Below are positions 8,293 to 56,767 of a stretch of DNA of 64,000 bases, piece by piece. Below the pieces are notes generated by a model. That model saw only the letters and a program-made list of their open reading frames with translations. It ran no database searches and was not told where the DNA came from. This stretch comes from Eledone cirrhosa (lineage: Eukaryota), in the NCBI GenBank assembly GCA_964016885.1, contig OZ024743.1, positions 127,348,001-127,412,000 on the forward strand. Reading direction: 5' to 3'. The position numbers were made by a program, and so were the translations under genes. Positions within the stretch are counted from its first letter, which is position 1, and the number at the start of each line of letters is the position of its first letter.

Positions 8293-8483
8293 TATATATA
8301 TATTGATGTTAGTTTATTGCTGGAGTGTTGTATTTTATTGGTGTTATCAGGTTTAAGCACTCCACGTCAGTTGTATCTAAATAAAATCTGGGTTCGCTTT
8401 GACTAGTGACCAATGGAGTATTAGTATGTTAATAAATCTGAAAACCCAGTTTTACTTTTTCATACTTCAATTAATTAAATAAT

Positions 8484-8663
8484 TGTTTCTACTTTAGGCA
8501 CAAGGCCAGCAATTACCCAGTGCATTACTGGTACTTTATTTTATCGACCCCGTAAGGATGAAAGGCAAAGTCAACCTCGGCGGGATTTGAACTCAGATCG
8601 TAAAGGGACGTAACTATGCTGGAAAGCATGGCGTCCGACCCACTGCCAATCCACCGCCAATCG
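8484..8663 (-). mobile_element. tRNA-derived SINE with a Meta-domain-like middle
   Basis: GAGTTCAAATCCCGCCGAGG..CTTTGCCTTTCATCCTTACGGGGTCGATAAA; TSD ATTAATTAAATAAT at 8470-8483 and 8664-8677. Confidence 0.9.
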
Positions 8664-8678
8664 ATTAATTAAATAATG

Positions 8679-8757
8679 ACTGTTATGTGCATTTCAAATG
8701 TGTCAGACGATAGTGACATAAGAATAACATAACTTCAACAAGTCATCGTCAGACAGT
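8679..8757 (-). ncRNA. Type I hammerhead ribozyme motif (degenerate)
   Basis: actgt CTGACGA [stem II] GAAA tgcaca TA acagt; stem I actgt/acagt. Confidence 0.6.
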
Positions 8758-9039
8758 ATTTCACGAAGTTGATGACATGAAAACCATAAGACATAGGTTG
8801 TTGAGTATCCAAATATGTTGATCAAAATTTGGACTATCAACGACCTGAATCCTGCAATCTGCATATCACCAACTTTGTGAAATACTGCCTGATGATGATA
8901 TGTTAGAGTTATATTCTTACTTAACTATTGCTTGATACTTCTGAAATTTATATAATAGTCATAATTTAATGAATTGAATTATGGAAGCGTAAAATGGTGT
9001 CTTCATATTTATTAAAACACAACACACATGCACATACAT

Positions 9040-9230
9040 ACACACCTACACAAACACACATATATATACTTCATTTTTGTGTGTTGTCACAAAAACAAGA
9101 TGGTGTAGGACAGAACAAAGGAGAGACACAAAATAAAAACCCATTCACTGAGGAAGTCACAGAATGTCTGACAAAAGAGCTTTGACAATATATAAACAAC
9201 CATCCGATTATCGAACCAACCAACCGGAAA
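9040..9230 (+). mobile_element. Degenerate copy of the Penelope-like pLTR seen at 17930-18390
   Basis: GTAGGACAGAACAAAGGAGAG..CACTGAGGAAGTCACAGA..AACCAACCAACC. Confidence 0.7.
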
Positions 9231-9815
9231 CTGGGGTGCTGCTGTGAGAAGGGTTCAGCGTGGCCAACTGGCCTATCCATCCTCATAGTGGTGTCATCCA
9301 TTGTCGGGCCCTGAAACTGTGATTTCGCTGTGAGATGGGTTTGACATGGCCAACTGTCCTGTCCCTCCTCATGGTGGAATCATGTGGCTTCCAATACCTG
9401 AACTGAAGGTCCACTGTGTGAGGGGTTCGGCGCGGTCAACTGGCCTATTTCTTCTCATAGCTGTGCCATCCGATACTAGGCCAGAAAACTATGGCTATGC
9501 TGTGAAATGAGTTTGGCTTCTTGTCAATGCCATCCAGTACAAGGCTATAACTGGCACATAGTGGTGCCATCCATTGCCAGGCTCCCAAACTCTGGGTCTG
9601 CACCTGTCCCACCTCATTCAGTACTGGACTCAAAAAGGGTGATTACACTGTGAGATGGGTTAGGCTCCTTGTATCGGTGCCAGCCAGTACTGGGCTCCTA
9701 AACTATGGTTCTGCTGTGAGTTGGGTCGGACTCCAAAACTGTGGTTCCATTGTAAGACGAGTTTCGTGTGGCCAACAGGTCTGTCCCTTCTTATGACGGA
9801 ACCATCCAGTGCTAC
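9230..9815. repeat. Degenerate ~80-90 bp GC-richer minisatellite, followed by an RTE-type tail (to ~9960)
   Basis: Recurring CTGTGAGATGGGTT..TGGCCAACTGGCCT..CCATCCAGTACT..AAACTGTGG. Confidence 0.7.
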
Positions 9816-10774: not shown

Positions 10775-11335
10775 GGCCCACATGCTGGCTGCATAGAGAA
10801 GGCATTTTCCCTGGAGGATGGTGAGGGAGATGTATTGGAAGAGCCATTCCAGCTTATGAGGCTCACACCTGCAGGTAGCCAACTCTGTGCTGATGGTGGT
10901 GAGTAATGAGGTGGCCCTAGCTTCAAGGACACCAGAAGTCTCTACTGCTCTGGGATTGACCAGAGAACGACCGATATTTGGAGAGTTTATCCTCTTCGGC
11001 CCGAAGTGCAACAGAGCCTGGGTTAGTCACGGACTGCACCAGTTTGCTGCATGTGGCATCCCAGATGAGGGGTTTACCATTGTGAAACGAGAAGATAGTC
11101 ATGCCATCTGACCTTCAGTCCAACCCTACTGGCTCGAGCAGGGAGGGGAAGCCTACAGCATTCAAGCCATACTTTATGATGACCTTGTTGAGAGCATCAT
11201 GACGTGGAATGCAGCAGGCACTCTAGTGACAAGACAGCAGGTGGAACTGCAATGTGGCTCACAGATCCAGAGGGAAACCCCAATTTGTAGGCTATAATTA
11301 TCAGTCGAAAAGGAGGGTAAGGCATTGAGCCAGAC
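10775..11335 (-). mobile_element. CRE-clade non-LTR retrotransposon remnant (C-terminal restriction-like endonuclease)
   Basis: Minus-strand translation with frameshifts: RHDALN..GFPSLLEPVGLD..SDGMTI..GKPLIWDATC..AEEDKLSKY..AVETSG..WLFQYISLTILQGNA. Confidence 0.75.
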
Positions 11336-13301
11336 TAGCATGGGTTAGACGGGAGTTGTGCCACTTGAGGCAAGGTTGGTTGGTTGGTTGGGTGACCATG
11401 TCTCGCTCATATAGGAGTATCTGGCAGGTTTTCTACGACTGGATGCCCTTCCTAACACCAACCACATTTACAGTGTGGAACTGGGAACTTTTTACCGTGT
11501 TACCTACACGGCCACATTACAGCGTGGACTGTGTGTTTTTTTTCTCGTGACACCTACACGATCTCGATCTCATTTATTTGGACTGGATGTTGTGGTACCA
11601 ACTTTACAGAGAGAGGCTGGTGTTGGTGGGAGTGGGAGGATAGGGTAGTGGATTGGGGTGTGTATTTGGTTAAGAGGTGCCTACTGACTCTAGGTTTCGC
11701 TTTGTACATAGGCAAGGTGGGTCTTCTGTATTACTGCGTAGCACCAAAGATCTCGGTCCAGTGACATTGTCTTAGAGAGGTGCAAGTGTGTAAGGTCGGA
11801 ATTTATCAGATCGTCCCAGGTTTTTCTGGGTCTAGCTACTCTGTAGTTACCATCAATTATGATCGCCTGCACTTTTTTATACAGCTGTCGTCTTTCATGC
11901 GTGTCACGTGGCCATACCAACATAGTTTTCTCTTGTGTAAACAGCATTTGATCCCTCTTATTCCTAATTTCTCACTTAGTTCATTTATGCTTTGCCGTTC
12001 ACGTATATTACTATTACACATCCAACGGAACATGCATGCTTCATTCCTTTCCAGTCTGCACAGGTCCTCTGCATGCAAGGCCCATGTCTCACTGCCATGT
12101 AGCATTGCTGTTCATATACAAGCATCATACAATCTGCCTTTCATTTTTAGAGAGAAACCTTTTGTGGCCAACAGCGGTATTAGCTCTCTGAACTTTTTTC
12201 CTCCCGTTCTGACTCTGGCTACTGTACTTTCAGAACACCCTCCACCACTGCTGATTTCGTCACCCAGGTAACGGAAAGTGTCTACTATTTCTATAGAACC
12301 ATCTGGGCAATAGAAGGGGCTAGTATCTTGTGGATACTTGCTACCTATTGCACCTGAGCATTGGCCACATATAAAGTCTACGTTCTAAGATAGTTTACCT
12401 GTTGTCCCAATACATGTACCCATACTTTGCATTTGGGACATAAAATTGAATTTCTGCCTACTCCTTTCCTACACACTGAGCAAGGCCATTTCCCTGAGGG
12501 TAGCTGTGCCATGTTTTCCTTTCTACAAACTAGGACTTTAGTCTTAGACAAGTTAACTTTAAGGCCTTTTGATTCTAGGCCATGCTTCCATGTTTGGAAT
12601 TTCTTTTTGAGTTCAGCCATTGATTCAGCTATGAGCGTTAGATCATCTGCGTTTAGAAGTTCCCACGGGCAGCCAGTCTTGAACTCCTCTGTTATAGCTT
12701 GAAGGGCAATAATAAATAGGAGGGGGCTAAGGACAGAGCCTTGGTGAACACCAACTTTTACACTAAATTCTTCACAATATTCATTGTTAATTCTAACCTT
12801 ACTGACTGTTTCATTATACATAGCTTGTATAGCTCTCACAAGCCATTCATCTACACCTAGTTTTCTAAGAGCCCACCAGATAATGGAACGGGGGACTTTG
12901 TCGAAGGCTTTTTCCAGGTCTCAAAAGCTAAGTAGAGGGGTTTACTTTTAGCTAGGTACTTTTCTTGTAGTTGTCGTACGAGGAAAAGAGCATCTGTGGT
13001 ACTTTTACCTGACACAAACCCAAACTGCATTTCTCTAGATCAATTTGCTTTCTGATTAGTTGCGCTATAACTCTTTGTGTGACCTTCATGACCTGGTCAA
13101 CTAACTTAATGCCTCTATAGTTTCCTCTATCTAGAGCATCTTTTTTACCCTTGTAGCAGTTAATGATGATGCTGCTACGCCAGTCCTTCGGAACAACCCC
13201 ATTCTGTATGACTTGGTTTACTATCTGGGTGACCATGGTGTGTCCCACCGTTCCAGAAGCTTTCAGCCAGTCTTTTGGTGTGACCCCATTCTGTATTACT
13301 T
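11336..13301 (-). mobile_element. Degraded RTE LINE (RT to 3' UTR)
   Basis: ORFs 11857-12105, 12378-12839 and 12952-13248 are homologous to the other RTE copies; multiple frameshifts. Confidence 0.9.
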
Positions 13302-13365
13302 GTATGTGTGTATATATGTGTGTGTGTATATATATATATATGTATGTATGTAAGTATGTATGTAT

Positions 13366-17000: not shown

Positions 17001-17234
17001 AGTTGCTGGCTGGACTAAAGAGTCATTCTATTCCAAAATTTGCTCCTATACAAATGACTTCCAAACATCTGATCCACCGAAACTCGGCCGTTTCGGACCA
17101 TACCAAAATCAACATACTGATTGCAGATTTGGTACGGGTGATGAGAAACATGTCCCGCATGTGCAACCCTGAAGAACTAGAGAGACACATACAACACTTC
17201 ATCCACCGTATGCAGTTCTCTGGCTACAATCAGA

Positions 17235-17930
17235 GTGTATAGAGGAGCCAGAACCAAATGGGAAAAAATGGTAAATAATGACATAAATGGGACCTGCCCC
17301 TTGTACAGGAGCAAATTTTGGAATAGAATAGAAAGAACTAGGAACAAGGCTAATAGAATAAACTCATGGTATGATAGCAATAAATACCAGAGTGTAATGT
17401 TCATCGATACAACCCCTAGAGGTGAATTAGCTTACAAATTTAGAAGGGCCCTAGATAAACATAAACTCAATATTAAGATAGTAGAAAGACCAGGTACCTC
17501 CGTAAAAACACTTATTAGCAAGACATACCCTTTTCAAAGACCCTCATGTATAGATAAGAAATGTATAACCTGTAAAATAAGCCCCCATATTAACTGTAAA
17601 ACTAGAAATGTAGTGTATAGCATAAGATGTACTGAAGGACAATGTAGAGACAAAAATATAGTGTACATAGGTAAGACAGCTCGTAGTGTAGGGGAACGGA
17701 TAAATGAACACTGGCGAGACCTTCAAGATAGTAAAGAATCATCTGTACTCTACCAACATGCTAAAATAGAACACAAGGGTAAATTAGAGAACATAGAAAT
17801 AAAAATAGAATCTACACACAGAAAAGACGCAATGTTTAGACAAATCACAGAGGCAATAAACATAAAAGAATTACAACCAAAATTAAATAGAAAATATGAG
17901 TGGAACAGCAACATCACAACTTACAATTAA
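17235..17930 (+). pseudogene. PLE polyprotein C-terminal fragment with GIY-YIG endonuclease
   Basis: VVY..YIG.T.R...R..EH...E...N motif order; no RT core upstream. Confidence 0.85.
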
Positions 17931-18130
17931 GGACAAAATGAAAATACACACACACATAGAACAAACAACCAACCAGTAACATATAAATAAACAAATAAAT
18001 AAATGAACATAAACACACACAGACACACGGATGTGGCGCATGCGCAGACTGAGCACACAACACACGCACAGAAACAAAATGGCGTAGGACAGAACAAAGG
18101 AGAGGCACAGAAACAAAGAAAGGAATCCCC

Positions 18131-18175
18131 AGTCACTGAAGAGGTCACAGAGTGTTTGACGAAAGAACTATGACT
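18131..18175 (+). ncRNA. Minimal type I hammerhead ribozyme in the PLE pLTR
   Basis: agtca CTGAAGA g gtcacagagtgtttgac GAAA gaac TA tgact; copies at 28472-28516 (-), 30007-30051 (+), 32845-32889 (-). Confidence 0.8.
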
Positions 18176-18391
18176 ATATATATATATAAACAACTATCTG
18201 GTTGTGGAACCAACCAACCAACCAGAAATTTATAAATTTATAAATTTATTATGAATTTATTATAATAAATTGAAGTGAAAGCAACTGGTGCGTGTATTTC
18301 TTATTGGCAACATAACCCTCCCAAAGTATAACAATATCGGTTTCAACACACGATTTCAGATAAAGAATCTTGCTAAACAAATTCAGAAACG

Positions 18392-18413
18392 ATATATATA
18401 TATAAATATACAT

Positions 18414-18444
<31 letters not shown>

Positions 18445-18621
18445 AATTTATATATATATATATATAAATACATATATATATATAAATACATATATATATA
18501 TATATAGTATATATAGTATATATATATATATATATAAATATATATATATAAATATGTATATAAATACATATATATATATAAATACATATATATATATATA
18601 TAGTATATATATATATAGTAT

Positions 18622-18652
<31 letters not shown>

Positions 18653-18716
18653 GTATATATATATATAAATATATATATATATAGTATATATATATATAAA
18701 TATATATATATATAGT

Positions 18717-18755
<39 letters not shown>

Positions 18756-20410: not shown

Positions 20411-20432
20411 ATAAATATATATATATATATAT
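19691..20432. repeat. Interrupted (TA)n microsatellite
   Basis: Direct observation. Confidence 0.98.
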
Positions 20433-23314
<2,882 letters not shown>

Positions 23315-28242: not shown

Positions 28243-28243
<1 letters not shown>

Positions 28244-30211
28244 TATATTTCGTTTCTGAATTTGTTTAACAAGATTCTTTATCTGAAATCGTGTGTTGAA
28301 ACCGATATTGTTACACTTTGGGAGGGTCATGCTGCCAATAAGAAACACACGCACACACACACCAGTTGCTTTCACTTCAATTTAATTTATTAAATATTTA
28401 TAAATTTACAAATTTATAAATTTCTGGTGGGTTGGTTGGTTCCACAACCAGATAGTTGTTTATATATATATAGTCATAGTTCTTTTGTCACACACTCTGT
28501 GACCTCTTCAGTGACTTGGGATTTCTTTCTTCGTTTCTGTGCCTTTCCTTTCTTCTATCCTACGCCATTTTGTTTGTGTGTGGGTTGCGTGCTCAGTTTG
28601 CGCATGCGCCACATCCGGGTGTCTGTGTGTGTTTGTGTTCATTTTTCTATTTTTCTATTTATATTTTTCTATTTGTTTGTTTATTTATTTATTTATTGTT
28701 GGTTGGTTGTTTGTTCTATGTGTGTGTGTGTTTTCATTTTGTCTTGTGTGTGTTTTCATTTTGTGTGTGTTTTCAATTGTAAGTTGTTTGTTCTATGTGT
28801 GTGTGTGTTTTCATTTTGTCCTTAATTGTAAGTTGTGATGTTGCTGTTCCACTCATATTTTCTATTTAATTTTGGTTTTAATTCTTTTATGCTTACTGCC
28901 TCTGTAATTTGCCTAAACATTGCATCTTTCTTGTGTGTGGATTCTATTTTTATTTCTATGCTCTCTAATTTACCCCTGTGTTCTATCTTAGCATGTTGGT
29001 AGAGCACAGATGATTCTTTACTATCTTGGAGGTCTCGCCAGTGTTCATTTATTCGTTCCCCTATACTACGAGCTGTCTCACCTATGTACACTACATTTTT
29101 GTTTCTACATTGTCCTTCAGTACATCTTATGCTATATACTACATTTCTAGTTTTACAGTTAATATGGGGGCTTATTTTACAGGTTATACATTTCTTATCT
29201 ATACATGAGGGTCTTTGGAACGGGTATGTCTTGCTAATAAGTGTTTTTACGGAGGTACCAGGTCTTTCTACTATCTTAATATTGAGATTATGTTTCTTTA
29301 GGGCCCTTCTAAATTTGTAGGCTAGTTCGCCTCTAGGGGTGGAACAGCAACATCACAACTTACAATTAAGGACAAAATGTAGTATATAGCATAAGATGTA
29401 CTGAAGGACAATATAGAAACAAAAATATAGTGTACATAGGTGAGACAGCTCGTAGTATAGGGGAACGAATAAATGAACACTGGCGAGACCTCCAAGATAA
29501 TAAAGAATCATCTGTGCTCTACCAACATGCTAAGATAGAACACAGGGGTAAATTAGAGAGCATAGAAATAAAAATAGAATCCACACACAAGAAAGACGCA
29601 ATGTTTAGGCAAATTACAGAGGCAGTAAGCATAAAAGAATTAAAACCAAAATTAAATAGAAAATATGAGTGGAACAGCAACATCACAACTTACAATTAAG
29701 GACAAAATGAAAACACACACACACACATAGAACAAACAACTTACAATTGAAAACACACACAAAATGAAAACACACACAAGACAAAATGAAAACACACACA
29801 CACATAGAACAAACAACCAACCAACAATAAATAAATAAATAAATAAACAAATATAAAAATATAAATAGAAAAATAGAAAAATGAACACAAACACACACAG
29901 ACACCCGGATGTGGCGCATGCGCAAACTGAGCACGCAACCCACACACAAACAAAATGGCGTAGGATAGAAGAAAGGAAAGGCACAGAAACGAAGAAGGAA
30001 ATCCCCAGTCACTGAAGAGGTCACAGAGTGTGTGACGAAAGAACTATGACTATATATATATATAAACAACTATCTGGTTGTGGAACCAACCAACCAACCA
30101 GAAATTTATAAATTTGTAAATTTATAAATATATAATAAATTAAATTGAAGTGAAAGCAACTGGTGCGTGTGTTTCTTATTGGCAACATGACCCTCCCAAA
30201 GTATAACAATA
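28243..30211. mobile_element. Head-to-head inverted pair of 5'-truncated Penelope-like copies (minus 28243-29340, plus ~29375-30211)
   Basis: GIY-YIG ORFs 28822-29091 (-) and 29430-29699 (+) are nearly identical; pLTRs point outward; (TA)n on both sides. Confidence 0.92.
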
Positions 30212-30828: not shown

Positions 30829-31120
30829 AACTAGCAAAGTCAATCTGTAAACGCAGAACTGGATATTTCAAAAAACGTTGCAACCGGAGGAAGACAGGAA
30901 GACGATACTTTGGTTCGTGGAAAAATATCCAGTTCTGCGTTTACAGATTGACTCTGTTAGTTTCAGAAGATCCCGTTAAGGGTGAAAGCAGCGATTTTGC
31001 TTAAACTTTAATCTGTTATTTTAATAAATATTTGCTCTACGGTTCTAATATATTTGATATATATTTATCCTTCTCGAGCCTTCTTTGGATTTTAGTCTTC
31101 AAATTTATTATTATTATTAC
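30829..31120 (+). mobile_element. Second copy of the 20433 hammerhead element, with a fold-back 5' end
   Basis: 30829-30870 pairs with 30924-30962; HHR motif at 30959-31007. Confidence 0.75.
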
Positions 31121-31197
31121 TATATATATATATATAAATATATATAGAATAAGTAAAAGCAAAGTAGTTTCAGATGTTCAAGTCCTTTAATAATAAT

Positions 31198-31383
31198 TGT
31201 TTCTACTTTTGGCACAAGGCCAGCAATTATCCCAGTGCATTATTGGTACTTTATTTTATCGACCCCGTAAGGATGAAAGGCAAAGTTAACCTAGGCGGGA
31301 TTTGAACTCAGAATGGCAAGGGCCGTAACTCTATGCATCAAAGCATGGCGTCCAACCCTCTACCGATACTGCCAATTCACCGC
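31198..31383 (-). mobile_element. Meta-domain-like tRNA SINE
   Basis: TSD CCTTTAATAATAAT at 31184-31197 and 31384-31397; paralogue of 8484-8663. Confidence 0.9.
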
Positions 31384-31397
31384 CCTTTAATAATAAT

Positions 31398-31471
31398 GCT
31401 ATGATATATATTTCAATGACGACACTGGATACACTGTTCTGTGTGCGAGTGTCGTGACATCATCAGACAGC
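31398..31471 (-). ncRNA. Type I hammerhead ribozyme with palindromic stem III
   Basis: gctgt CTGATGA [tg..acgacact..agtgtcgtca..] GAAA tatata TC atagc; mirror copy at 31949-32022 (+) has CTTATGA. Confidence 0.75.
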
Positions 31472-32216
31472 TTGTTACATAATAAGGTTATGTTTCCGAG
31501 GCAATCCAAGTTTCTCACTCATAACTTCCAACGTAAAACCATGATACCTAGAATTAAGTATATTTTCTCTTGGGAGGTGATGGTCAGTCGTACTGTCCAT
31601 GCTTATTATGTAACAAGCTGTCTTGTGACCTGTAAAAACTAATACTCTCCCATCCCATCCCCTCTGGCTTTCGGCTGACTGCCACAGACGGGACGGGTAG
31701 CAGTAAACTATGCTACAGGCCTAAGTGTGTCATTGTTTTGGCTGAGAGGGTGAACTGACTAAGCGAATTTCGTTGAAATCGGCGGTAGCTAATGGCCAAC
31801 TTCCTTCAGACATGCGCCTGTGCAGACCGGTGGGGGTGAATCGGTACTCACAGGGGAACGGATGAAGAACCCAAAAGCACACACTTCGTCCGTTCCCATG
31901 TCGATTCAACTTGGATTGCCTCGGAAACATAACCTTATTATGTAACAAGCTGTCTTATGATGTCGCGACACTCGCACACAGAACAGTGTGGCCATCGTCG
32001 TCATTGAAATATATATCACAGCATTATTATTAAAGGACTTGAACATCTGAAACTACTTCGCTTTTACTTATTCGATATTTACTCCGTCACTCCTATGTGG
32101 AAAAAGTACGTTGAGTGCTTGAATTGAATTGCATCAATATTTACCCTAAGTATAAATATATATAAATATATATATATATAAATATATATATATAAATAAA
32201 TATATATAAATATACA

Positions 32217-32686: not shown

Positions 32687-33555
32687 ATATTGTTATACTT
32701 TGGGAGGGTCATGTTGCCAATAAGAAACACACGCACCAGTTGCTTTCACTTCAATTTATTATATATTTATAAATTTACAAATCCACAAATTTATAAATTT
32801 CTGGTTGGTTGGTTGGTTCCACAACCAGATAGTTGTTTATATATAGTCATAGTCCTTTCGTCACACACTCTGTGACCTCTTCAGTGACTGGGGATTCCTC
32901 TCTTTGTTTCTGTGCCTTTCCTTTCTTCTGTCCTACGCCATTTTGTTTCTGTGTGTGTGTTGTGTGCTCAGTTTGCGCATGCGCCACATCCGGGTGTCTG
33001 TGTGTGTGAGTGTTCATTTATCTATTTGTTTATTTATTTACATGTTATTGGTTGTTTGTTCTATGTGTGTGTGTGTTTTCATTTTGTCCTTAATTGTAAG
33101 TTGTGATGTTGCTGTTCCACTCATATTTTCTATTTAATTTTGGTTGTAATACATATATATATCCTCTATACACTCTGATTCTATCTCTCTGATTGTAGCC
33201 AGAGAACTGCATACGGTGGATGAAGTGTTGTATGTGTCTCTCTAGTTCTTCGGGGTTGCACATGCGGGACACATTTCTCATCACCCGTACCAAATCCGCA
33301 ATCAGTATGTTGATGTTGGTATGGTCCGAAATGGCCGAGTTTCGGTGGATCAGATGTTTGGAAGTCATGGGTTTGGCATAATGAGAATGGAGGATTTGTT
33401 TTTGGTTGTTAATGGTATCTAACCAGAGCTCTGTGTCTAGTACAGGTAATCGATGGTTGGGGTGTCTACTTGGGTAGTCTATAGTAACTCTAATGCTCTG
33501 GTGGATGGAGTTTGCTATTTGCTGGATGCTTTCCAGCATCCAGCAAATAGCAAAC
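32687..33555 (-). mobile_element. Internally deleted Penelope-like (Nematis-type) copy
   Basis: RT thumb (LPVLDTELW..YAKPM..QFSGY) joined through a short TA filler at ~33150-33162 to the last codons of the ORF and the pLTR; GIY-YIG missing. Confidence 0.9.
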
Positions 33556-33784
33556 TGTTCGAAGGTAATATTAAGCCCTAGTTCTAAGAAAAGTTTCCTA
33601 ATGTTTTTACGTCGCCTTTCTAGGTTTTGTTTGTTTATATTCTTGACTAATAGAAGTGTATCGTCGCGGTATATTCCGCCGTGGAGGTCCGTAAATTCGC
33701 TCTGGAGTCTGTGGGCTATATAGATCCCAACCAGATCCGTGACCTCCGCCGAGGCTTAATATTACCTTCGAACACAATCTTAAG

Positions 33785-34894
33785 GTGGTCAACTTCTTGG
33801 ATGTCACCTTCAACCTTAATAACGGTAATATAGAGCCATTTCACAAACTTAATGAAAATCTCAAGTACGTTAATGTAAAATCGAACCATCCCCATTCCAT
33901 TATTAAATCTATCCCTAAAAATATATCCATAAGGATCTCCCGACTGTCGTCTAATTTGCAGACCTTCAACGAGCATGCTGAATATTATAATGACGCACTT
34001 AGAAAAGCTGGTTACTGCGAGAAAATAGAATATCTAGACGATAACCACATAAGTACTATGAATAAAACACATCTAAGTCGAACTAGTATTGCACCACACA
34101 CACACATCAATAGGCATACTAATAGGTGCAAACCAGCAAATAGAGTCAGACGTAGAGAGTACATATGGTATAACCCCGTGTACAATACTTCTATTAGCAC
34201 TAAGATTATCTCACAATTCTATACACTAATCAGTAAACATTTTACAACTTCACATAAATACTATAAAATCTTTAACTCGCGCACCATTAGACTCTCATAC
34301 TCCACTGCACCTAACATAGAACAACTAATTAAAAAACTCAACTCAGCAATACTAAATAAGTACATCCCTAATGACTCAGCGCACCAGCATAGCAACATAC
34401 AACGCACTAACACGCAACTACAACCCCACCAAACTATCCAGGATTCTACTGCAAAACATAAAAATAATTCTAACTGCACCAAACCAGGTACGTGCCCACT
34501 GAATAACCAGTGCCTAGCACGCAATATTGTCTACCGTTGTACAATAAATTTCGGAACCAACAAATGGTATTACGTCGGATGTACCGCGACTTCTTTCAAA
34601 GCTCGCCTATACCAATATCGATCTTCGATCAGGCACGAGAAAATGCGTTCCGTAACAACCCTCGCCGATAAAGCCTGGCAGCTCCGGAGGAACAATCAAG
34701 CATTCTCCCTTGATTGGCAAATTATTGCAGCTGCGCCTGCATATAAGCAGAATCATCGATTCTGCAAATTATGCAATTTGGAGATATACTGCATTTTAAC
34801 GTCGGTAAACAAACTTTTGAACAGCAAAATTGAACGTTCACTATACTGTAACCATCGTTTGAAAACGACTTTTTCTTTTTTTAAATGCATATAA
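33785..34894 (+). pseudogene. PLE RT thumb plus GIY-YIG endonuclease (open frame, N-terminus lost)
   Basis: Motifs as listed for the parent element. Confidence 0.85.
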
Positions 34895-35303
34895 TGTTAC
34901 CTTTTTACACCACCGTTTGCAAATTTCTGTTTTATATGTTTATACACAAGATATGGCTCTCTATAATAATAGTACTAAACACTGTTTTCTGGACCCCTTT
35001 AGAAATGACCTGCTACTATAATAGCCCCAATAACTTGTCTGTAACTTGTACCACTTTGACCCTTTTCACTAAATTTTGTCCGAACAACACCACTAGAAGA
35101 ATTTACCTCCCCCGCCAACCCTAACACGCCTCATTAAGCTAACTGCTGCCAAAACATTCTCTCCTTACAATCTCTACTAGTCTGACAGTCTTAAATCCTA
35201 GGACTCCCTCCACCTTACTCACTTCCCTCTTCCCCTTCTCTTCCTACCTTCTTCTTTCTCTTTTATCTAGTGTATAAAATATTTTCATATCATTCCAATT
35301 CAA

Positions 35304-35420
35304 AGGTCTGACGACATGGTGTGTTTGCTTACAGTGTACCTTTGGTTTATGATAATATTTTTATATTATTCAAATAGCGAGGTATAGGTAACCCATACAC
35401 TATAGAAACAATTGTTACCT
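35304..35420 (+). ncRNA. Type I hammerhead ribozyme with long stem II and palindromic stem III
   Basis: aggt CTGACGA [atggtgtg..tacactat] GAAA caattg TT acct. Confidence 0.75.
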
Positions 35421-35500
35421 AATAAATTCTTTATACCCGCATTTCCATTTCATAAACTTCTTCTCTATATATATATTTATATATATATTCATATATATAT

Positions 35501-36800
35501 ACAATTAAGTTAAAAATGTACATCCATATATGTATACTGAAATACTAGTATGCATATGAATACACACACGTATACATATATAGATGTACCAAGTCTTTCA
35601 CTGGTTACTTTACTGTGAGTATCCAGCTATTCTGTATGTAAACACACAGACAAACCGGTTTTTAGAGTCATACTGGTTTTTGAGGAAACACCTTTCCTCT
35701 ATTCTCCAGAAAGCCAGACAAGGAATATTGAACTAGTTTCATTGTTGTTACAACTCATCAGCAATATTTACCTATCTACCGGCCTTTCTGGAGAATCGTA
35801 AAAGCACATATCGTTATATGCTTTTTCTATGAAAATTAGTAGTGGGCAGACTAATTTGCATAGAGTGTGAGTACGTACCGGTTCAACGGAGACGATAAAA
35901 ACAAATAACGAAACGAAATTAAATTTCGCTTCGTTTGTAACTCACTTTTGTATGACTGACGCTTAAACAATTAAGTTAAAAATGTACATCCATATATGTA
36001 TACTGAAATACTAGTATGCATATGAATACACACACGTATACATATATAGATGTACCAAGTCTTTCACTGGTTACTTTACTGTGAGTATCCAGCTATTCTG
36101 TATGTAAACACACAGACAAACCGGTTTTTAGAGTCATACTGGTTTTTGAGGAAACACCTTTCCTCTATTCTCCAGAAAGCCAGACAAGGAATATTGAACT
36201 AGTTTCGTTGTTGTTACAACTCATCAGCAATATTTACCTATCTACCGGCCTTTCTGGGGAATCGTAAAAGCGTCAGTCATACAAAAGTGAGTTACAAACG
36301 AAGCGAAATTTAATTTCGTTTCGTTATTTGTTTTTATCGTCTCCGTTGAACCGGTACGTACTCACACTCTATGCAAATTAGTCTGCCCACTACTAATTTT
36401 CATAGAAAAAGTATATAACGATATGTGCTTTTACGATTCTCCAGAAAGGCCGGTAGATAGGTAAATATTGCTGATGAGTTGTAACAACAACGAAACTAGT
36501 TCAATATTCCTTGTCTGGCTTTCTGGAGAATAGAGGAAAGGTGTTTCCTCAAAAACCAGTATGACTCTAAAAACTGGTTTGTCTGTGTGTTTACATACAG
36601 AATAGCTGGATACTCACAGTAAAGTAACCAGTGAAAGACTTGGTACATCTATATATGTATACGTGTGTGTATTCATATGCATACTAGTATTTCAGTATAC
36701 ATATATGGATGTACATTTTTAACTTAATTGTTTAAGCGTCAGTCATACAAAAGTGAGTTACAAACGAAGCGAAATTTAATTTCGTTTCGTTATTTGTTTT
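35501..36800. mobile_element. 466 bp non-coding hammerhead-containing unit in tandem plus inverted array (retrozyme-like)
   Basis: 35501-35966 is repeated at 35967-36270, then reverse complemented at ~36268-36800; one HHR per unit. Confidence 0.85.
36464..36508 (+). ncRNA. Minimal type I hammerhead ribozyme
   Basis: aatattg CTGATGA gttgt aaca acaac GAAA ctag TT caatatt; copies at 35724-35768 (-) and 36190-36234 (-). Confidence 0.88.
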
Positions 36801-36879
36801 CATATATATATATTTATATATATATTTATATATATATATTTATATATATATATTTATATATATATTTATATTTATATTT

Positions 36880-37985
36880 AAGTAAGTCCAAAGAATCATT
36901 AGATAAAATATATACAGTATTTCTTTTCCCAATTAGTATAAATCAACCACATAAAAAATCATTTAAACGAGGCTTTAAGTTTAATATGTACTTATATATA
37001 TTTATACATAGTTTAAAATGTACTTATGAAGAAATAATAGATAAATGATATAGCTTTTACAGGAGTATATATATATAAATTAGACAAAGTCATAAATACA
37101 TATATCTGTTTTTGGCAACCATTTACGGTGTGGGTCAATGAAGAATTAACTAAATAATTAATAATCTGAGCAATATATAAAGAAGTAAGTCCAAAGAATC
37201 ATTAGATAAAATATATACCGTATTTCTTCTCCAAATCAATATAAATCAACCACATAAAAAATCATTTAAACGAGGCTATAAGTTAAAAATGTACTTATGA
37301 AGAAATAATAGACAAATGATATAACTTTTTTTCCGCAACATACAGCTACAAAATATTTACCTAATATTTCTACTAGCCTGTAGAAATTGACTAGACATAT
37401 AGTTAACTACACGGAATTAGGTACAAAATCGAAGTTAGAAGAAAAAATGTACATAAACTTTACCAAAATCTTCATAATCTCTACCACCTGGCGGTTTCGT
37501 TCCCTTTTTGGATATATCCGGTCTTGGATAAATCAACAAAGCTTGGAACTCATCAGGAGATATACCTCAATGGACTAAGATTTTTTCTACAATGATCCCC
37601 ACCAGAAATGAATTCAAAATGGCTAAGAATCATCACGTGGCCAGTGGTCAAGGCAGAAAGTTTATGACTGGTGCCAGTCGGCGAGTAGGCTGGTTGCTAG
37701 AAAGCTCAGCCGAATACTGCCTAAAGTTTTACTCAACATTACGGGAGTATATATAAATTAGACAGTCATAGATGCATATATATGTTTTTGGCAACCATTC
37801 ACGGTGTGGCTCAAAGAAGAACTAAATAATTAATAATCAGAGCAATATATAAAGAAGTAAGTCCAAAGAATCATTAGATAAAATATATACAGTATTTTTT
37901 CTCCCAATCAGTATAAATCAACCACATAATAAAAAAAAATCATTTAAACGAGGCTATAAGTTTAAAATGTACTTATATATATTTA
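36880..37985 (-). mobile_element. Tandem non-coding repeat (672 bp unit with a hammerhead, plus a deleted 303 bp unit)
   Basis: AAGTAAGTCCAAAGAATCATTAG starts at 36880, 37183 and 37855; HHR at 37477-37561. Confidence 0.75.
37477..37561 (-). ncRNA. Type I hammerhead ribozyme
   Basis: atctc CTGATGA gttcc...ggaac GAAA ccgccaggtgg TA gagat. Confidence 0.82.
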
Positions 37986-37993
37986 TATATATA

Positions 37994-38167
37994 TATTGTT
38001 ATACTGGGGGTGGGAGTCATATTGTTATAATATTGCCAGAAATAATAACAGAACACACTCACTGTTTGGTTTGGGTTGGTTTTCGTTTCTGTATCTTTTG
38101 TATCTCTATAGTTAATTTATCTGGCAATCAATGTTTATCATTGATTGACCAACGGTTAAAAATACAG

Positions 38168-38237
<70 letters not shown>

Positions 38238-38329
38238 TATCAAAGTTCTTTCGTCACACATCTGTGACATCATCAGTCGTACTATTATTTTTCCTCCCAT
38301 TGTATTGTAATGCCTACGCCATTTTTATT

Positions 38330-38372
<43 letters not shown>

Positions 38373-39130
38373 TTCTTGGCTCTGTCACTGTTTACACATG
38401 CGTTTGCTTGTGTGTTTCCTATTTGGTGTGTGTGTGTTCATGTTTGAGTGTATGTGTTTTGGTTTTTTATTCTATCTTTGTTCACTAGTGTGTTTTTATA
38501 TGTGTTTGTTGTTATTGTACTTGTGTATATATTTATTTATTTATTTATTCATTTATTTATTTATTTCCCTTAGCTCAGTATTGTTTGAATATAGTTGTTG
38601 TTATTCCATTCGTTCTTTCTGTTTAACTTTGGTTTTCTTAGTTCTATCTCAGTTGCTTCTCTGATCTGCCTGGCTGTTGAATGATTTCTATGCTTAGATA
38701 TTATTTTAATTTCTATATTGTCTATATTACCGTCATGTCTTTGTCTGGTGTGTTCATATAGTACTGATCCGTTTTTTTGTCCTTTTAGTTCCCTCCAGTG
38801 TTGGTCTATTCTTTATCCTATGCTTCGAGCTGTCTCACCTATGTATGTCGTTGTCATGTTTCTGCAAGTACCCTCTTTACATTTTATGCTATAGACTACA
38901 TTTCTAGTTTTACAATTTATCTGGGGGTTCATTCTACATATAACACATTTCTTATTTAAGAAAACCCACTGTACAAATAAGAAATGTGTTATATGTAGAA
39001 TGAACCCCTAGATAAATTGTAAAACTAGAAATGTAGTCTATAGCATAAGATGTACAGAGGGTACTTTCAGAAACATGACAACGACATACATAGGTGAGAC
39101 AGCTTGAAGTATAGGAGAAAGAATAGACCA
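37994..39130 (-). mobile_element. Older Nematis-type PLE subfamily copy with an inverted 5' duplication
   Basis: GIY-YIG remnant at ~38570-38970 (-), mirrored at ~38987-39130 (+); pLTR with CTGATGA..GAAAGAACTT at 38233-38284 (-). Confidence 0.8.
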
Positions 39131-46309: not shown

Positions 46310-46470
46310 ATTGATCCTAGTACTTGACTGGTACTTTTTTTATCAACCTCAAATGGATAAAAGGCAAAGTTGACCTCAGCGCGATTTGAACTGAGAGAGC
46401 AGAGAACTGAAATGAATATCACGAAGCATTCTATCTGACATTCTAATGATTCTACCAATTCACCACCTTG
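46310..46470 (-). mobile_element. Older Meta-domain-like SINE copy
   Basis: CTGGTACTT..GGATAAAAGGCAAAGTTGACCTC..GATTTGAACT. Confidence 0.75.
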
Positions 46471-48773: not shown

Positions 48774-49504
48774 GATGGCTGTAAACTCTGCTAAGAGTAC
48801 TGCAATTGCTTGTCAGGTTATAGAGTTTGGTGCACTTATAGGCTACGGCCAGTCACACAAACCTGTAACAGATCCTGAACTAGCAATGCCTGTAGTTTGA
48901 AGGTTTTTTAAGTGAAGAAAGGCCTTGTACTCGACCAATCCCACTCTCTGAGCATCGAAAACACTACCCGAAAAAGAGAACTGGTCAACATCATCGGATG
49001 CTTCCGAAGCCGCAGGTTTTTTTCAGAGTTTTCCTCTCTTAGAAAGGTGTTGTGACAACAGGGGGCCTTTCACTCCCAGGTTTAAAAAAAAAAACGTACT
49101 ATTTGGATGGCCGTTGACTCTGCTGAGTTCCTTCGCCCTTTGCCGGCTCTTGTATTTCATTTTGCAGGGTGTCCAAATATCACCAGTTTAGTTGCCGACT
49201 ACCTGACCATGAGACACGTTGTACTCGGTTACATGTTACCAGTAGTACTCGAGAGTAACCAGACACATACATGATGGCTGCAAACTCGTGTTCGAGCATT
49301 GCCATCGCCTGATAAAATGCTCAAAAATGTGAGGCACGAATGTGGCTCTTTAAACCAGCCAAAGACTTGCACCTTCTGGCACATATATGACAACTGTAGG
49401 CTCCCCCGGGACTTTCCATTGCTTTGTTCTCATGTGGTTTTTGAGATCTCCCATACTAACACATTCCTTGCACCTTTTCAGTAGCACCCGAGAGCGACCT
49501 GACA
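48774..49504. mobile_element. Two tandem non-coding elements (48774-49265 and 49273-49504) with shared termini, each flanked by CATAC
   Basis: Both start GATGGCTGYAAACTC and end CAGTAGYACYCGAGAGYRACCWGACA; interiors differ. Confidence 0.75.
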
Positions 49505-49522
49505 CATACATGCATAAACCCC

Positions 49523-51352: not shown

Positions 51353-51497
51353 ATACGTACATACATACATAACGTCTTGCTTTCTGCTTCTCTCTTTGCT
51401 ATGTGTACTTGATGACTAGCTTCTCCTGTTATTCCACTCCAATATCCCTTTTGTCATTTTGAGTCACACAGTTTTAGTAGCAATAGGTATATATTCA

Positions 51498-51634
51498 TAA
51501 TTGTTTCTACTTTTGGCACAAGGCCAGCAATTATCCAGTACATTACTAGTACTTTATTTTATCGACCCCGTAAGGATGAAAGGCAAAGTTAACCTCGGCG
51601 GGATTTGAACTCAGACTGTAAAGGGACGTAACTG
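51498..51634 (-). mobile_element. Meta-domain-like SINE lacking its 5' head
   Basis: Paralogue of 8484-8615. Confidence 0.85.
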
Positions 51635-51639
51635 TGCTA

Positions 51640-53575: not shown

Positions 53576-53817
53576 AAGAAAGATAAACAGAATCTTTTTA
53601 GTTGTAGTTACAGAAGAAACCGAAAGAAAGATAAACAGAATCTTTTTAGTTGTAGTTACAGAAGAAACCGAAAGAAAGATAAACAGAATCTTTTTAGTTG
53701 TAGTTACAGAAGGAACCGAAAGAAAGATAAACAGAATCTTTTTAGTTGTAGTTACAGAAGGAACCGAAAGAAAGATAAACAGAATCTTTTTAGTTGTAAT
53801 TACAGAAGAAACCGAAA
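53576..53817. repeat. 48 bp tandem repeat, 5 copies
   Basis: AAGAAAGATAAACAGAATCTTTTTAGTTGTAGTTACAGAAGRAACCGA. Confidence 0.97.
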
Positions 53818-54044
53818 CTATAAATTGCATTTTTCTTGGAATTTTGAACTCAATAACAACCTATTTAATTGTTATAAAATGACAAAAAGACCCCTCCGTT
53901 GGCTATATAAACAAAATGAAGCTACACTTGGACAAACTTCACGCAAAGCGCTAAATTATTTCGCAGTCAAACAATTATACCAATATGCAGGGTTTGTTGA
54001 ACATAAAAATAACAAACATAAACATTAGTCAAAACAATAATTTA

Positions 54045-54796
54045 GTAGCTCCCAATGTGTGTGCTGTGCTTGTGCTGACACCAACATTTGAACTACTTGA
54101 CTGGATGTTAGATGAGATCCAAGCCATTGATGTTAATTAAAGCCCCAAATGTTCTAACTGGTACTGGAAATTTCCACATCAATAGTGATATAGACCTTCT
54201 GTACCTGAAATGTAAACAAGGAGGCAAAGGCTTAACATCAATCCAAATAGCATTTGAGTGTCACATCATATTCTTCCAACATATATGAGCCACCAAATGT
54301 AGAAGCCCATCTATAGAACAAGTCTGTCTACATAAGGCAGATAACATCATAAGAATTGGGAAGGAGTTCCTTGAGAAATACTCCCTGCATGGTAGCCAGA
54401 AACTCACACTCAAGGAAATTGCACAGCAACACCACAATGAAACCATGGAGGAAAAGCTGCTTGCTTATCAGCAAAAAATCATGCAAAGTTATGTTGCCAG
54501 AAAGCTTCAAAGTGAGAGTAATATACATAAGCAAAGCAATCTATCTTGCACCATCAACCAGTATATTGGCTCTCACTTTGAAGGATACACTGTTGCAATC
54601 CAAGAACAGGAAATAACAAAATATGCACAAAACAGATAGGGATGCAGGTAAAACACCTAGATGTGACAACAGATGCAGACATACATACATATTTACCTAG
54701 TTAATGCTGTCTAAATCCCAATGAAAGAGTTTCTATGTTAGAAACTGACTCTTTCTCTATTGATGAAAACATAGAAAATAATAAAACTAGAAGAAC
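54045..54796 (+). mobile_element. Old, internally deleted R4/Dong-like copy
   Basis: YQQKIM.SYVARKLQSESNI..GSHFEGY..IQEQEI; ends AGAAGAAC-(ATAC)n. Confidence 0.85.
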
Positions 54797-55789
54797 ATAC
54801 ATACATACATGCATACATACATACACCTCAGGAGAAATATTACAATTTCAATGCTATTTTTAATAGATTAAGGTTGTTAATTATTTGATAATTTGATGAT
54901 ATTAAAGTAGTAAAATAAAGGATTTTAATAAATCAGGGATGGTAGATTAGGTAATGTTAATTCTTTTGATACTAGACTGTCTGAAACTGCATTTGATTTT
55001 ATAATAGAAAACTTTATATTAATCTAAACACCTTCCATCATAAAAAACCTTTGTTAAATTATGTTCCAAATACCATCTCAATTATGAAAAAGTTAATATT
55101 TCTAAATCCCTTGAAATATGGTAAGGAAACGGTTGTGTTAGAAAAAGTATTTTATAAATCTTATTTGTGATATTATCTGTAATAAGCTAAAACTGGATTG
55201 TTGTTTTTTTTTTGTTTATTGTGCTCTGCTGTCTTTCATTCTGTCTAATTGTTTAAAAGTCTTACCAAATATAGAGTATTTTTTCTCACCAGAATTCATG
55301 ATTTTCAAATGGTTGAACTGCTTTTGTCTCGATGATAATCTAGACAACCATCTAATCACTGGCTACTACTACTATTACTTGTTTTTTCCTCATCATCATC
55401 AACATCATGATGATGATCATCATCTCCACCACCACCACCACCATCACTAACATCATCAGTTAGAAACAGCCTATCAATAAATATAAAGCAATATTTTTTA
55501 AAATTGCTCTCTAGAGTCAATAGCATAGTTGTTGATCACTCTTACACCCAGTTTCTCTCTCTGTTCATTTATACTTTGCCATTTATCTATGTTACTATTA
55601 TATATCCATTGGAGTAGGCAAACGTCATTTCTTTCCAGTCTTCCCAGGTTCTCTGCACATAGCACCCAAGCCTTGCTACCATGCAGCATTGCTGTTCGTA
55701 GGTGTTTGCTGCTTATGGCTCCTGTGCAATAGCCACTTGTAAAACGCAAGTTCTTAACTAACGACCAAGCATAGACGAGTTGAGAGAGA

Positions 55790-56097
55790 AAGTGTGTATA
55801 AGAGAGATAAGTTGTAGTGTGCGGGAGAGAAGACTGCGTTGGTATGGACATGTGATGTGCTTGGAGGATGACCGCTAGGTAAAGAAGTGCCAAGAAATCC
55901 CAGGAGAAGGAAGCCGCAGTAGAGGAAGACCACAAAAATCATGGGCAGAGGTAGTGAAAGCTGACCTCAGGTCGCTGAAGCTCACAGAGGAGATGACGAA
56001 GACCGTGACGAATGAAGTGATGCTGTGCTGAATAGGACCTGTCCCACCTTTGCAAGCAGGAAAAAACAGACGTAAAATGATGATGATGATGATGATA
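55790..56097 (+). mobile_element. RTE 3' end of a short-UTR subfamily (a minus-strand RTE fragment lies at ~55530-55740)
   Basis: RLRWYGHV..GRPQKSWAEVVKADL; tail CCCACCTTTGCAAGCAGG..GACGTAAAA(TGA)n. Confidence 0.85.
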
Positions 56098-56111
56098 GGT
56101 ATCATTTAAGG

Positions 56112-56767
56112 TAATCCAGTTAGAGGTTATGAGTACTCTGTGTCGAGAATAGTTTTAATGTACGGCATTGTTTGACTCAACAAGAAGTTTCCTTAATCGG
56201 GTGGCGAGTTTAAGAAAGTTCCTAGGCAGGTGGTTCTTGGAGTAATAATAGCAAAAGAATGAGGAATAACATGGTCGGCTGTACAATAGGGTTTATTTAC
56301 AGTATTACAATTGTTTCTTTAATCAGGTGAGTCTAAAAGCCGCTGATCATTAGAAGTTATGTCACTCGATCTATTACAGTTCAGAATACTGAAGCGTACA
56401 TAACACAGAGCACTGATATTTATAGATACATGGGAGATAAATACCAGTGCCCTGCGTTATAAATGCTTCAGTATTCTGACGATTTGATCGGGTAGGAACT
56501 GTAATTAAGGTCAAGTGATGTAACTTCTAATGATCAACGGCTTTTAGACTCACCTGATTAAAGAAACAATTGTAATACTGTAAATAAACCCTATTGTACA
56601 GCCGACCATGTTATTCTTCATTCTTTTGCTATTATTACTCCAAGAACCACCTGCCTAGGAACTTTCTTAACTGGCCACCCGACTAAGGAAACTTCTTGTT
56701 GAGTCAAACAATGCTGTACATTAAAACTATCCTCGACACAGAGTACTTACAACCTCTAGCTGGATTA
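56112..56767. mobile_element. 656 bp near-perfect palindromic non-coding element with a hammerhead motif
   Basis: Arms are reverse complements about ~56428; HHR at 56469-56580 (+). Confidence 0.85.
56469..56580 (+). ncRNA. Type I hammerhead motif with palindromic stem III
   Basis: cagtatt CTGACGA tttgatcgggt...acctgattaaa GAAA caattg TA atactg (1 nt bulge in stem I). Confidence 0.7.

Follow-up and report, generated by a model that had tools for sequence, protein, structure and literature searches.

Hammerhead repeats in a nest of Penelope-like elements of Eledone cirrhosa include non-coding units with a Penelope-type insertion footprint

Two classes of animal hammerhead repeats bear on the present locus, and both are already known: the Penelope-like elements (PLEs), which carry hammerheads in their pLTRs, and the retrozymes. 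The inverted-pLTR and tail structure of PLE insertions (PMC3846280; PMC8557442 Fig. 2; PMC11167929) comprises an inverted 5'-truncated arm, a tail at one end and an AT-rich target, the tail being the span between two reverse transcriptase (RT) start sites. Opposite-strand hammerhead pairs 100–700 bp apart were also noted earlier (PMC4209133). Non-LTR retrozymes are a named class that covers non-autonomous ribozyme RNAs of the kind considered here, and the enzyme moving them in animals has been argued through co-occurrence, shared hammerheads and pLTR trees (PMC7229834; bioRxiv 10.64898/2026.07.22.740005).

We analysed a window of 64,000 nucleotides from the E. cirrhosa genome, in which most of the hammerhead motifs belong to ordinary PLE stubs. 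We read the window as a nest of PLE insertions in (TA)n, in which five repeat families represent ends of PLEs with coding capacity, whereas D, E and F are ORF-free units likely retrotransposed in trans by PLE enzymes; we give this reading a probability of about 0.78.

Hammerhead motifs and repeat families of the window

Each of the 18 positions listed in the first-pass annotation carries a hammerhead-shaped motif. Ten of them pass a full descriptor requiring the core, GAAA, UH and three stems (C3 at 18136+, 30012+, 32884-, 31466-, 35308+, 35761-, 36227-, 36471+, 37556- and 56476+). An initial strict descriptor had returned 4 motifs and was then loosened, under shuffle control, for a long loop II and one extra base; 100 block shuffles yielded a mean of 0.06 and a maximum of 1 match, and the reversed window yielded 0. 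The remaining eight motifs are imperfect within the window: G12 is lost in 28511- and 9148+, G5 is altered in 31954+, stem II is poor in 8752- and 8889+, stem I is weak in 38276-, and position 4 is an A in 20947+ and 30964+, the last being a family-wide trait. The family H motif at 56476 misses one cleavage-site T that is present in most other aligned H copies. The sole Rfam matches were to HH9 on the three E copies, at a sub-threshold 34.4–38.6 bits against a gathering value of 52. The predicted minimum-energy fold of the F hammerhead is a three-way junction. Stem II shows a compensatory change in E (U-A 39, A-U 12, broken 0; n=51) and in H (A-U 13, G-C 12, G-U 2, broken 3; n=30), these being counts of copies that probably reflect one event per family. 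E and F possess a canonical core with a G-C pair at the base of stem II.

The motifs fall into nine repeat families (Table 1). In every family but F, the arms were confirmed to be inverted, with the ribozyme strand directed outward. The view that most of the motifs lie in non-coding elements was not confirmed: at other genomic sites C and H have coding copies, and G retains a GIY-YIG remnant at 38.6–39.1 kb. Nor was the tandem-only array proposed at 36.9–38.0 kb, which is one minus-strand F arm with a single hammerhead.

Table 1. Features of the window, in window coordinates; motif boundaries were read by hand from motif listings
Feature	Position	Strand	Remarks
Family B head-to-head pair	8661..8977	both arms	old; arms 72% alike
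Family B hammerhead-like motifs	8679-8757, 8884-8959	-, +	Hydra-type U.U base of stem II; 8-nt palindromic stem III
Decayed A-type pLTR fragment	9088..9225	+	hammerhead G12 lost; C3 9148
Family A (Neptune-like PLE, by motifs), 5'-truncated copy	17054..18399	+	RT-thumb/GIY-YIG ORF 17181-17930; hammerhead 18131-18175
Family C (Hydra-clade PLE) head-to-head stub	20411..21016		
C stub, minus arm	20411-20547	-	tail only; long 3' end
C stub, plus arm	20547-21016	+	U4A hammerhead 20942-20992; short 3' end
Family A head-to-head pair	28243..30207		GIY-YIG ORF pieces; hammerheads 28472-28516 (-, G12 lost), 30007-30051 (+)
Family C stub	30829..31143		short inverted arm 30829-30920; plus arm with U4A hammerhead 30959-31007
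Family D head-to-head insertion (non-coding ~1.26-1.32 kb unit)	31139..32153		hammerheads 31398-31471 (-), 31949-32022 (+, G5 changed)
SINE inside minus arm of D insertion	31192-31390		
Family A copy, internal deletion	32692..33535	-	hammerhead 32845-32889
Family I (Hydra-clade PLE) head-to-head insertion	33556..35470		inverted RT piece 33556-33752
I insertion, plus arm		+	RT-thumb/GIY-YIG ORF 33743-34894; long-loop hammerhead 35304-35420
Family E head-to-head insertion (non-coding 466-bp unit)	35498..36803		
E insertion, minus arm	35498-36271	-	1.7 units; 3' end = unit position 233; hammerheads 35724-35768, 36190-36234
E insertion, plus arm	36260-36803	+	1.2 units; 3' end = 302; hammerhead 36464-36508
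Family F (non-coding ~700-bp unit)	36880..37976	-	~1.4 units plus short duplicated piece; hammerhead 37477-37561
Family G (sister of A) head-to-head insertion	37990..39130		GIY-YIG remnant 38596-39125; hammerhead about 38233-38281 (-)
Family H (older Hydra-clade PLE) head-to-head stub	56098..56767		long-loop hammerhead 56469-56580 (+); minus-arm core deleted

Coding elements behind five of the families

Families A, G, C, H and I are the pLTRs or ends of coding PLEs and adjoin RT/GIY-YIG coding sequence. The endonuclease C-terminus lies at most 1.2 kb upstream on the same strand in 25/101 motif contexts of C, 11/16 of I, 4/17 of A and 3/31 of H; H is joined to GIY-YIG sequence in loci L174, L188, L191 and L197, and G in locus L503. 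Long natural ORFs occur in C (585 aa), A (570 aa) and I (468 and 430 aa). The first-pass annotation had proposed that families without an ORF in the window may be non-autonomous ribozyme RNAs moved by PLE RT/GIY-YIG, and had named as the contrary outcome that the families turn out to be pLTRs belonging to coding PLEs at other loci. This is what we found for five of them, C, H, G, A and I; the proposal is supported for D, E and F by their closed tandem units and PLE-type footprint.

C and I are assigned by their motifs to the Hydra-clade PLEs, which include Hydra-1_Obim (Craig et al. 2021, PMC8557442): they share RWR, DKT, CxCX5C, CxxC and CxH with this clade and resemble it in their (TA)n targets and in a unit length of ~3 kb. 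RWR is read in the translation of I and in the codons at the pLTR-ORF junction of C, DKT is present in both, and by eye both end in a GIY-YIG domain with the CxCX5C linker, CxxC and CxH and without CCHH; H copies are too broken for motif reading. A Pfam search of the C and I ORFs found no family. C, D, B and most H copies have a U.U pair closing the base of stem II, the form that prevails in File S2 of that paper. By eye, Hydra-1_Obim differs from C, I and H in its hammerhead, as given there, and in its N-terminus. H and I, which are 37–59% identical over their aligned pieces and have a canonical core, depart from the Hydra-clade PLEs by a loop II of 55–75 nt. C departs by an A at core position 4 (U4A), found in 25,949 genome matches, or ~26,000 copies, and in none of the Hydra rows of File S2. 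A canonical-core C subfamily was considered and dropped, as 20/20 inspected of 893 canonical-looking matches were inversion junctions; the sequence also raised the idea that a splice acceptor restores the C core, which was rejected, with no spliced copy among 20 genomic copies inspected.

A and G appear to be Neptune-like PLEs, a label based on motifs. They resemble the Neptune/Nematis-type PLEs (Cervera and de la Pena 2014, PMC4209133) in the CX4CxxC linker before GIY-YIG, in an extra nucleotide between A9 and G10.1 with a two-pair stem III, and in the many solo or opposite-strand pairs. The linker was read in A, which has the RT upstream; G would belong to this type through its similarity to A. 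The A ORF scored 21.4 bits for RVT_1 and 21.6 bits for GIY-YIG in Pfam, each below the cut-off, and a PDB sequence search with the C and A ORFs found nothing. B, whose copies are highly diverged, showed no common upstream ORF in 21 and 13 loci (overlapping sets).

Non-coding units and their insertion footprint

D, E and F form closed, ORF-free units of 1262–1322 bp, 466 bp and about 700 bp, respectively, in which the tail runs back into the unit's own hammerhead. Since they loop into themselves in this way, they would work like animal non-LTR retrozymes. An endonuclease C-terminus within 1.2 kb upstream was found in 0/96 E, 1/59 D and 1/24 F contexts, the E and D samples being drawn from at least 6,255 and at least 984 motifs; both exceptions are non-contiguous, the endonuclease being separated from the motif by a G element or by a D arm of opposite orientation. 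By tblastn the units showed no RT/EN similarity, and comparison with the resident coding PLEs recovered here gave no similarity, the best E value being 0.05 or worse and of low complexity. The longest stop-to-stop frames are 60 aa in E, 76 aa in F and 141 aa in D, the last hydrophobic and AT-rich. D is probably derived from the Hydra clade, as its hammerhead type suggests. A second ribozyme considered in the GC-rich part of D had no Rfam support.

As described by Cervera and de la Pena (2020, PMC7229834) and Li et al. (2026), animal non-LTR retrozymes likewise consist of ORF-free tandem units, each with a single type I hammerhead, with low GC, copies ranging from dispersed monomers to long arrays, and co-resident PLEs; E also shares their high self-pairing. 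The units of D, E and F are larger than the about 170–400 bp of retrozymes, for which Li et al. report up to 972. Head-to-head multimers with two fixed 3' ends, as observed here, were not found described for retrozymes in what is available of these two sources.

Downstream of the hammerhead, each unit ends against (TA)n at two fixed 3' positions, 233/302 in E, 64/139 in D and 308/435 in F, and so do the coding PLEs (29/117 in C, about 50/163 in I, about 55/220 in H). In head-to-head insertions, one arm uses each site: in 37/37 scorable E insertions (23/23 scorable among 25 in a top-hit set, 14/14 in a pattern-drawn set), 8/8 scorable of 11 in F, 4/4 scorable of 9 in D and 17/18 scorable of 20 in the coding family C, where the exception (L240) has both arms at the short end. 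As all 10 E insertions inspected have (TA)n on both sides, the target-site duplication is unreadable. D, E and F therefore carry the same two-ended footprint as PLEs and were likely copied by Penelope enzymes. This footprint on non-coding units is direct genomic support for the proposed mobilisation of retrozymes by PLEs.

The head-to-head arms correspond to the published structure of inverted 5'-truncated PLE insertions (PMC3846280; Fig. 2 legend of PMC8557442). The tails, at about 70–170 nt, are longer than the 30–40 nt of that structure, and the rule of one arm per site, unlike in those reports, now has counts behind it and holds for non-coding units too. It provides a simple account of the head-to-head structure. 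In 9 of the 17 C insertions each arm has sequence that is missing from its partner, so that one arm is no snap-back copy of the other, and this argues against the self-priming reading in PMC3846280. A literature search, which covered few subscription papers, returned nothing on these families, on a natural U4A hammerhead or on a PLE footprint on retrozymes, and non-coding hammerhead units with such a footprint seem to be new.

Proposed mechanism and alternative explanations

In the mechanism that we propose, GIY-YIG would cut both strands of (TA)n, and the ends so produced would each prime cDNA on the element RNA at one of two internal start sites, by analogy with in vitro results on an anole PLE, which has two internal RT start sites (PMC11167929). 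Both cDNAs would stop at variable points and then be joined, often via a few shared bases, giving outward-reading inverted arms with a tail at one side only; short products would remain as non-coding-looking stubs. Since E arms cross the cleavage site for up to 31 units, the E template was most likely either a circle made by self-cleavage and religation or a multimer that stayed uncleaved. A PLE footprint is resolved to the nucleotide on young non-coding units beside young coding PLEs with long ORFs. This enables an in vitro test in which the RNA is defined, its two RT start sites are predicted and the candidate enzymes number three (A, C and I).

Two accounts that dispense with retrotransposition of non-coding RNAs in trans fare poorly. 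If all nine families were truncated ends of coding PLEs, as five of them are, the parents of D, E and F would have been missed, and the genome searches do cover the best 40 candidates scored or the first matches listed, and B may be such an end as well. However, what lies upstream of the D, E and F hammerheads is the unit's own tail, multi-unit arms lack an ORF, and none of the 96 E contexts has an upstream endonuclease; we consider this account very improbable. We rate as equally improbable that D, E and F are satellites that each arose once or rarely from a PLE end and spread at the DNA level by unequal crossover or extrachromosomal circles, the inverted arms being later fold-backs. The dispersed copies, which number in the hundreds to thousands, stop against (TA)n at either of two fixed nucleotides, and DNA-level rearrangement has no evident route to the one-arm-per-site pattern of the E insertions, which largely refutes it for dispersal. 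It may still account for growth of the longest arrays, where recurring variants (31 E units, alternating D units) resemble post-insertion expansion, a kind of local amplification that Li et al. (2026, bioRxiv 10.64898/2026.07.22.740005) discuss.

With trans-retrotransposition by PLE enzymes retained, the form of the template is the only point on which the next alternative differs. D, E and F could be internally deleted PLEs, copied by PLEs from uncleaved linear multimers made by source arrays, with the hammerhead as a passenger and no circle, which is a real but minority prospect. Arm 5' ends are not in excess at the cleavage site (E 7 versus 9 in the control, C 136 versus 130); this speaks against a cleaved linear RNA as template, a candidate that we rejected, and fits a circle and a never-cleaving RNA equally. 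The passenger account also draws on the spread of C with its non-canonical core, on anole PLE insertion in vitro being unaffected by hammerhead mutants (PMC11167929) and on Xenopus retrozyme dimers, only 1/9 of which cleaved (bioRxiv 10.64898/2026.07.22.740005). It further draws on array heterogeneity. In the D array at C1:130.88 Mb, units are up to ~95 substitutions apart, two types alternate and the arms are unlike; in the 31-unit E arm, variants recur in non-adjacent units; neither fits copying of one circle. Against it stand the compensatory change in E stem II, the canonical core and G-C stem II base of E and F, and the strong self-pairing of the E unit (z -10.5 linear; -15.9 circular, from 12 shuffles). 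The E insertion at C1:30.83 Mb also counts against it, with 17/17 full units identical across both arms and private variants in common, an identity that assembly could also produce. We tentatively suggest, at somewhat less than even odds, that E, and perhaps D as well, exists today as an active circular RNA with a hammerhead, on which a resident PLE dimer performs twin-primed rolling-circle reverse transcription, one cDNA per fixed start site, yielding head-to-head multimers of one RNA molecule. In the same tentative scheme, C would either possess a U4A hammerhead that is naturally active or show that the PLE with the greatest success in this genome spread while its ribozyme was not functional.

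The other units give a more varied picture. F (701 nt) folds with z -3.0, no better than a coding-PLE control (-2.6), and D (1262 nt) has a folding energy slightly below 4 shuffles. D reaches 6 units per arm; F occurs as partial tandems of up to ~1.4 units, two consecutive full units not being seen in the F copies examined. Arms stop at the 5' hammerhead edge in 11/30 C and 12/30 H cases as against 0/30 in D, 0/29 in F and 1/38 in E. A rule that only coding PLE arms stop at this edge, as the transcription start, was discarded when it failed an independent test in I (2/30) and G (none of 20 loci, two A-type copies set aside). A small local hairpin in C and H could cause fold-back, so the 5'-edge stops are no evidence for circles. 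Among contigs of four sequencing runs, their kind unrecorded, one of 496 nt steps back 466 in E, where tandem and circle would look alike, and in one run (TA)n loose ends lie at E 233/302, as genomic DNA would give.

Hammerhead families in the window

The window (G000:C4:127348001-127412000, on contig C4 of the 3.0-Gb assembly G000) is nearly all repeats, including long (TA)n tracts, RTE-like and other LINE pieces, a SINE and mariner pieces. All 18 hammerhead motifs listed in the first-pass annotation were found, and its estimate of at least eight families became nine, A to I, on self-comparison and mapping. A descriptor comprising core, GAAA, UH and three stems was passed by 10 of the 18 motifs, against a mean of 0.06 in 100 block shuffles and 0 in the reversed window; the window copies of the remaining eight show damage or atypical features. 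Thirteen motifs cluster at 28.2-38.3 kb, in a nest of elements inserted into one another's (TA)n flanks. Genome-wide copies were counted as exact-pattern matches (reversed-pattern control, 0 for each), which undercount old families, F and H having about 3,000 first-look candidates each. The summed matches correspond to about one motif per 53 kb, and the window is therefore locally rich.

Hammerhead families and other repeats, with window coordinates unless a contig or outside locus (L) is named, and exact-pattern matches genome-wide
Feature	Position	Matches
A-type		21,260
B		13
C (positions of window copies)	20942-20992; 30959-31007	25,949 plus 893
D		984
D, GC-rich hairpin-forming segment upstream of hammerhead	31640-31930	
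D array (L431, L432)	G000:C1:130882144-130893766	
E (position of window unit)	36262-36790	6,255
E, duplication in minus arm (L225)	G000:C1:407944000-407951500	
E, copies 440 bp apart (L480, L481)	G000:C1:218587436 and 218587876	
F		29
G		237
H		376
I		872
A/I junction	33535-33556	
A/I junction, open frame (minus)	33090-33755	
A/I junction, small palindrome	33509-33556	
SINE-like repeat	8471-8661; 31192-31390; 46309-46396; 51497-51638; 62294-62509; 63935-64000; L224:7072-7172	
LINE pieces with C-terminal restriction-like endonuclease, R4/Dong-like by motif	13347-15981; 49354-51371; 54030-54681	
RTE-like LINE copies	3026-7196; 11335-13267; 23923-27289; 58245-61786	
RTE-like pair, 98-99% alike, opposite orientation	25262-26921; 58641-60300	
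Mariner-like transposase remnants, by motif	42882-43832; 63480-63821	
5.4-kb AT-repeat region broken by insertions	18392-23759	
48-bp tandem repeat, five copies	53576-53817	

Coding and non-coding families

Most families had been assigned to non-coding elements; this was not confirmed, as five of the nine families (A, C, G, H and I) adjoin coding sequence of Penelope-like elements (PLEs) and are PLE ends. Of the sampled motif contexts, a PLE endonuclease end lay in the same orientation and no more than 1.2 kb upstream in 25 of 101 for C, 11 of 16 for I, 4 of 17 for A and 3 of 31 for H. In several loci, walking upstream from one H copy led into sequence of the GIY-YIG domain and RT thumb, and an A-like endonuclease was contiguous with G in one of 20 loci and in the window copy. 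C forms a 3,259-bp tandem with a 585-aa frame; I has frames of 468 and 430 aa, and A one of 570 aa. C and I carry the motifs given as defining the Hydra clade in section 11 of PMC8557442, while A has the CX4CxxC linker, as in Neptune-type elements.

At the A/I junction, an internally deleted A copy abuts, within one open frame, the inverted RT piece of the I insertion, which may reflect a nested insertion or a template switch between PLEs of two clades. In the H and I pLTRs (L059, L204), TATA-like boxes precede the hammerhead core by about 35-40 nt; a transcription start at the first stem I bases is plausible, with 5'-end data backing it only for H.

D, E, F and B yielded no contiguous PLE ORF in the sampled contexts. 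An upstream endonuclease end was scored in 0 of 96 contexts for E, 1 of 59 for D, 1 of 24 for F and 1 of 12 for B; in the D and F cases another arm or element intervenes before the ORF, and the B case is in fact a D copy that matched the B pattern. The units of D (1,262-1,322 bp), E (466 bp) and F (about 700 bp) show no likeness to PLE proteins or to the coding families' DNA, and the tail of each leads back into sequence upstream of its own hammerhead. Arms reach 31 units in E and 6 in D; F was seen only in partial tandems. D, E and F, with predicted hammerheads, are new families of the retrozyme kind. B is old, its copies being 69-81% identical to the window copy, and past about 100 nt upstream no shared sequence was found. 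Stem II of D and B has a U.U base, as in most Hydra-clade hammerheads of PMC8557442 File S2, which suggests that both may derive from that clade.

The SINE-like repeat lies in the AT-rich stretch that immediately follows the cleavage site of D (at two separate loci) and of B, and within the microsatellite upstream of H at several loci. The GC-rich, hairpin-forming segment of D contains a GC-rich motif that resembles one upstream of the A hammerhead and perhaps an NRF1 site; Rfam gave no match for this segment in the L224 copy. Both E copies at L480 and L481 are missing the bases that precede the cleavage site and possibly form a tandem of ribozyme-less units. The E unit also occurs in public runs, of unrecorded kind, that carry codes for three organisms (A, B and C).

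A PLE insertion footprint on non-coding units

Copies of C, D, E, F, H and I stop at either of two fixed 3' ends, both lying downstream of the cleavage site and abutting (TA)n, and in head-to-head insertions each end is used by one arm. For E, this held in all 23 scorable among 25 head-to-head cases from 29 top-hit insertions, one reference shifting coordinates by up to 36, and in all 14 scorable among 23 insertions from a pattern list, many of them chosen as paired-looking, which biases the head-to-head share and leaves end type unselected. The same was found in 8 of 8 scorable cases among 11 for F, 4 of 4 among 9 for D, and 17 of 18 among 20 for coding C. The outward-reading arms seen at first pass are real; their geometry is that published for PLEs, and most window features are ordinary PLE stubs. 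The proposed mobilisation of non-coding ribozyme RNAs by PLEs is supported for D, E and F by this footprint and by their closed units. The counted footprint seems new and is a useful addition, making the retrozyme-PLE link directly testable.

One site per arm agrees with a PLE tail at a single end (PMC8557442, Fig. 2 legend), and two 3' ends agree with the two internal RT start sites and extension of both target strands described in PMC11167929. Simple self-priming (PMC3846280) is argued against by this one-arm-per-site usage and by C, where, in our reading, each arm has sequence absent from the other in 9 of 17 cases, indicating that both were copied from RNA.

As to the template, a circle or an uncleaved multimer, arms freely cross the cleavage site, and 5' ends of copies are not enriched there (E, 7 versus 9; C, 136 versus 130). 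All 17 units of one E insertion, spread over its two arms, are identical and carry private variants; two further insertions come close, with identity in 4 of 6 units and in 3 of 4. Variants recur in the 31-unit E arm, however, and a D array with 10 motifs is heterogeneous with unlike arms, which argues against a single circle. Coding and non-coding families seemed to differ in their 5' stops, but this contrast, which held in C and H, failed in I and G and was dropped. The E unit is predicted to fold far better than shuffles, and it shows a compensatory stem II change.

In the 10-motif array (L431 and L432), the plus arm alternates two D unit types about 6% apart and the minus arm has a third, reflecting either a higher-order repeat or mixed templates. 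Two adjacent E units at L225 carry an 18-bp duplication that ends at the short RT start site (position 233, the other being 302), possibly left when E re-inserted into an array of itself.

The variant core of family C

A second useful addition is the U4A hammerhead of C. The 25,949 matches, among them copies just 78-90% like the young reference, have A at core position 4, and the stems can still pair in aligned copies, although the predicted fold of the monomer is not a hammerhead. The canonical-core subfamily (893 matches) was rejected, all 20 inspected cases arising from an inversion junction. Either the variant core cleaves or C spread without cleavage; the latter would parallel the hammerhead mutants of PMC11167929, which inserted in vitro without cleavage. 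Arms of C stop 0-9 nt upstream of the core in 11 of 30 cases, these often being near-perfect palindromes.
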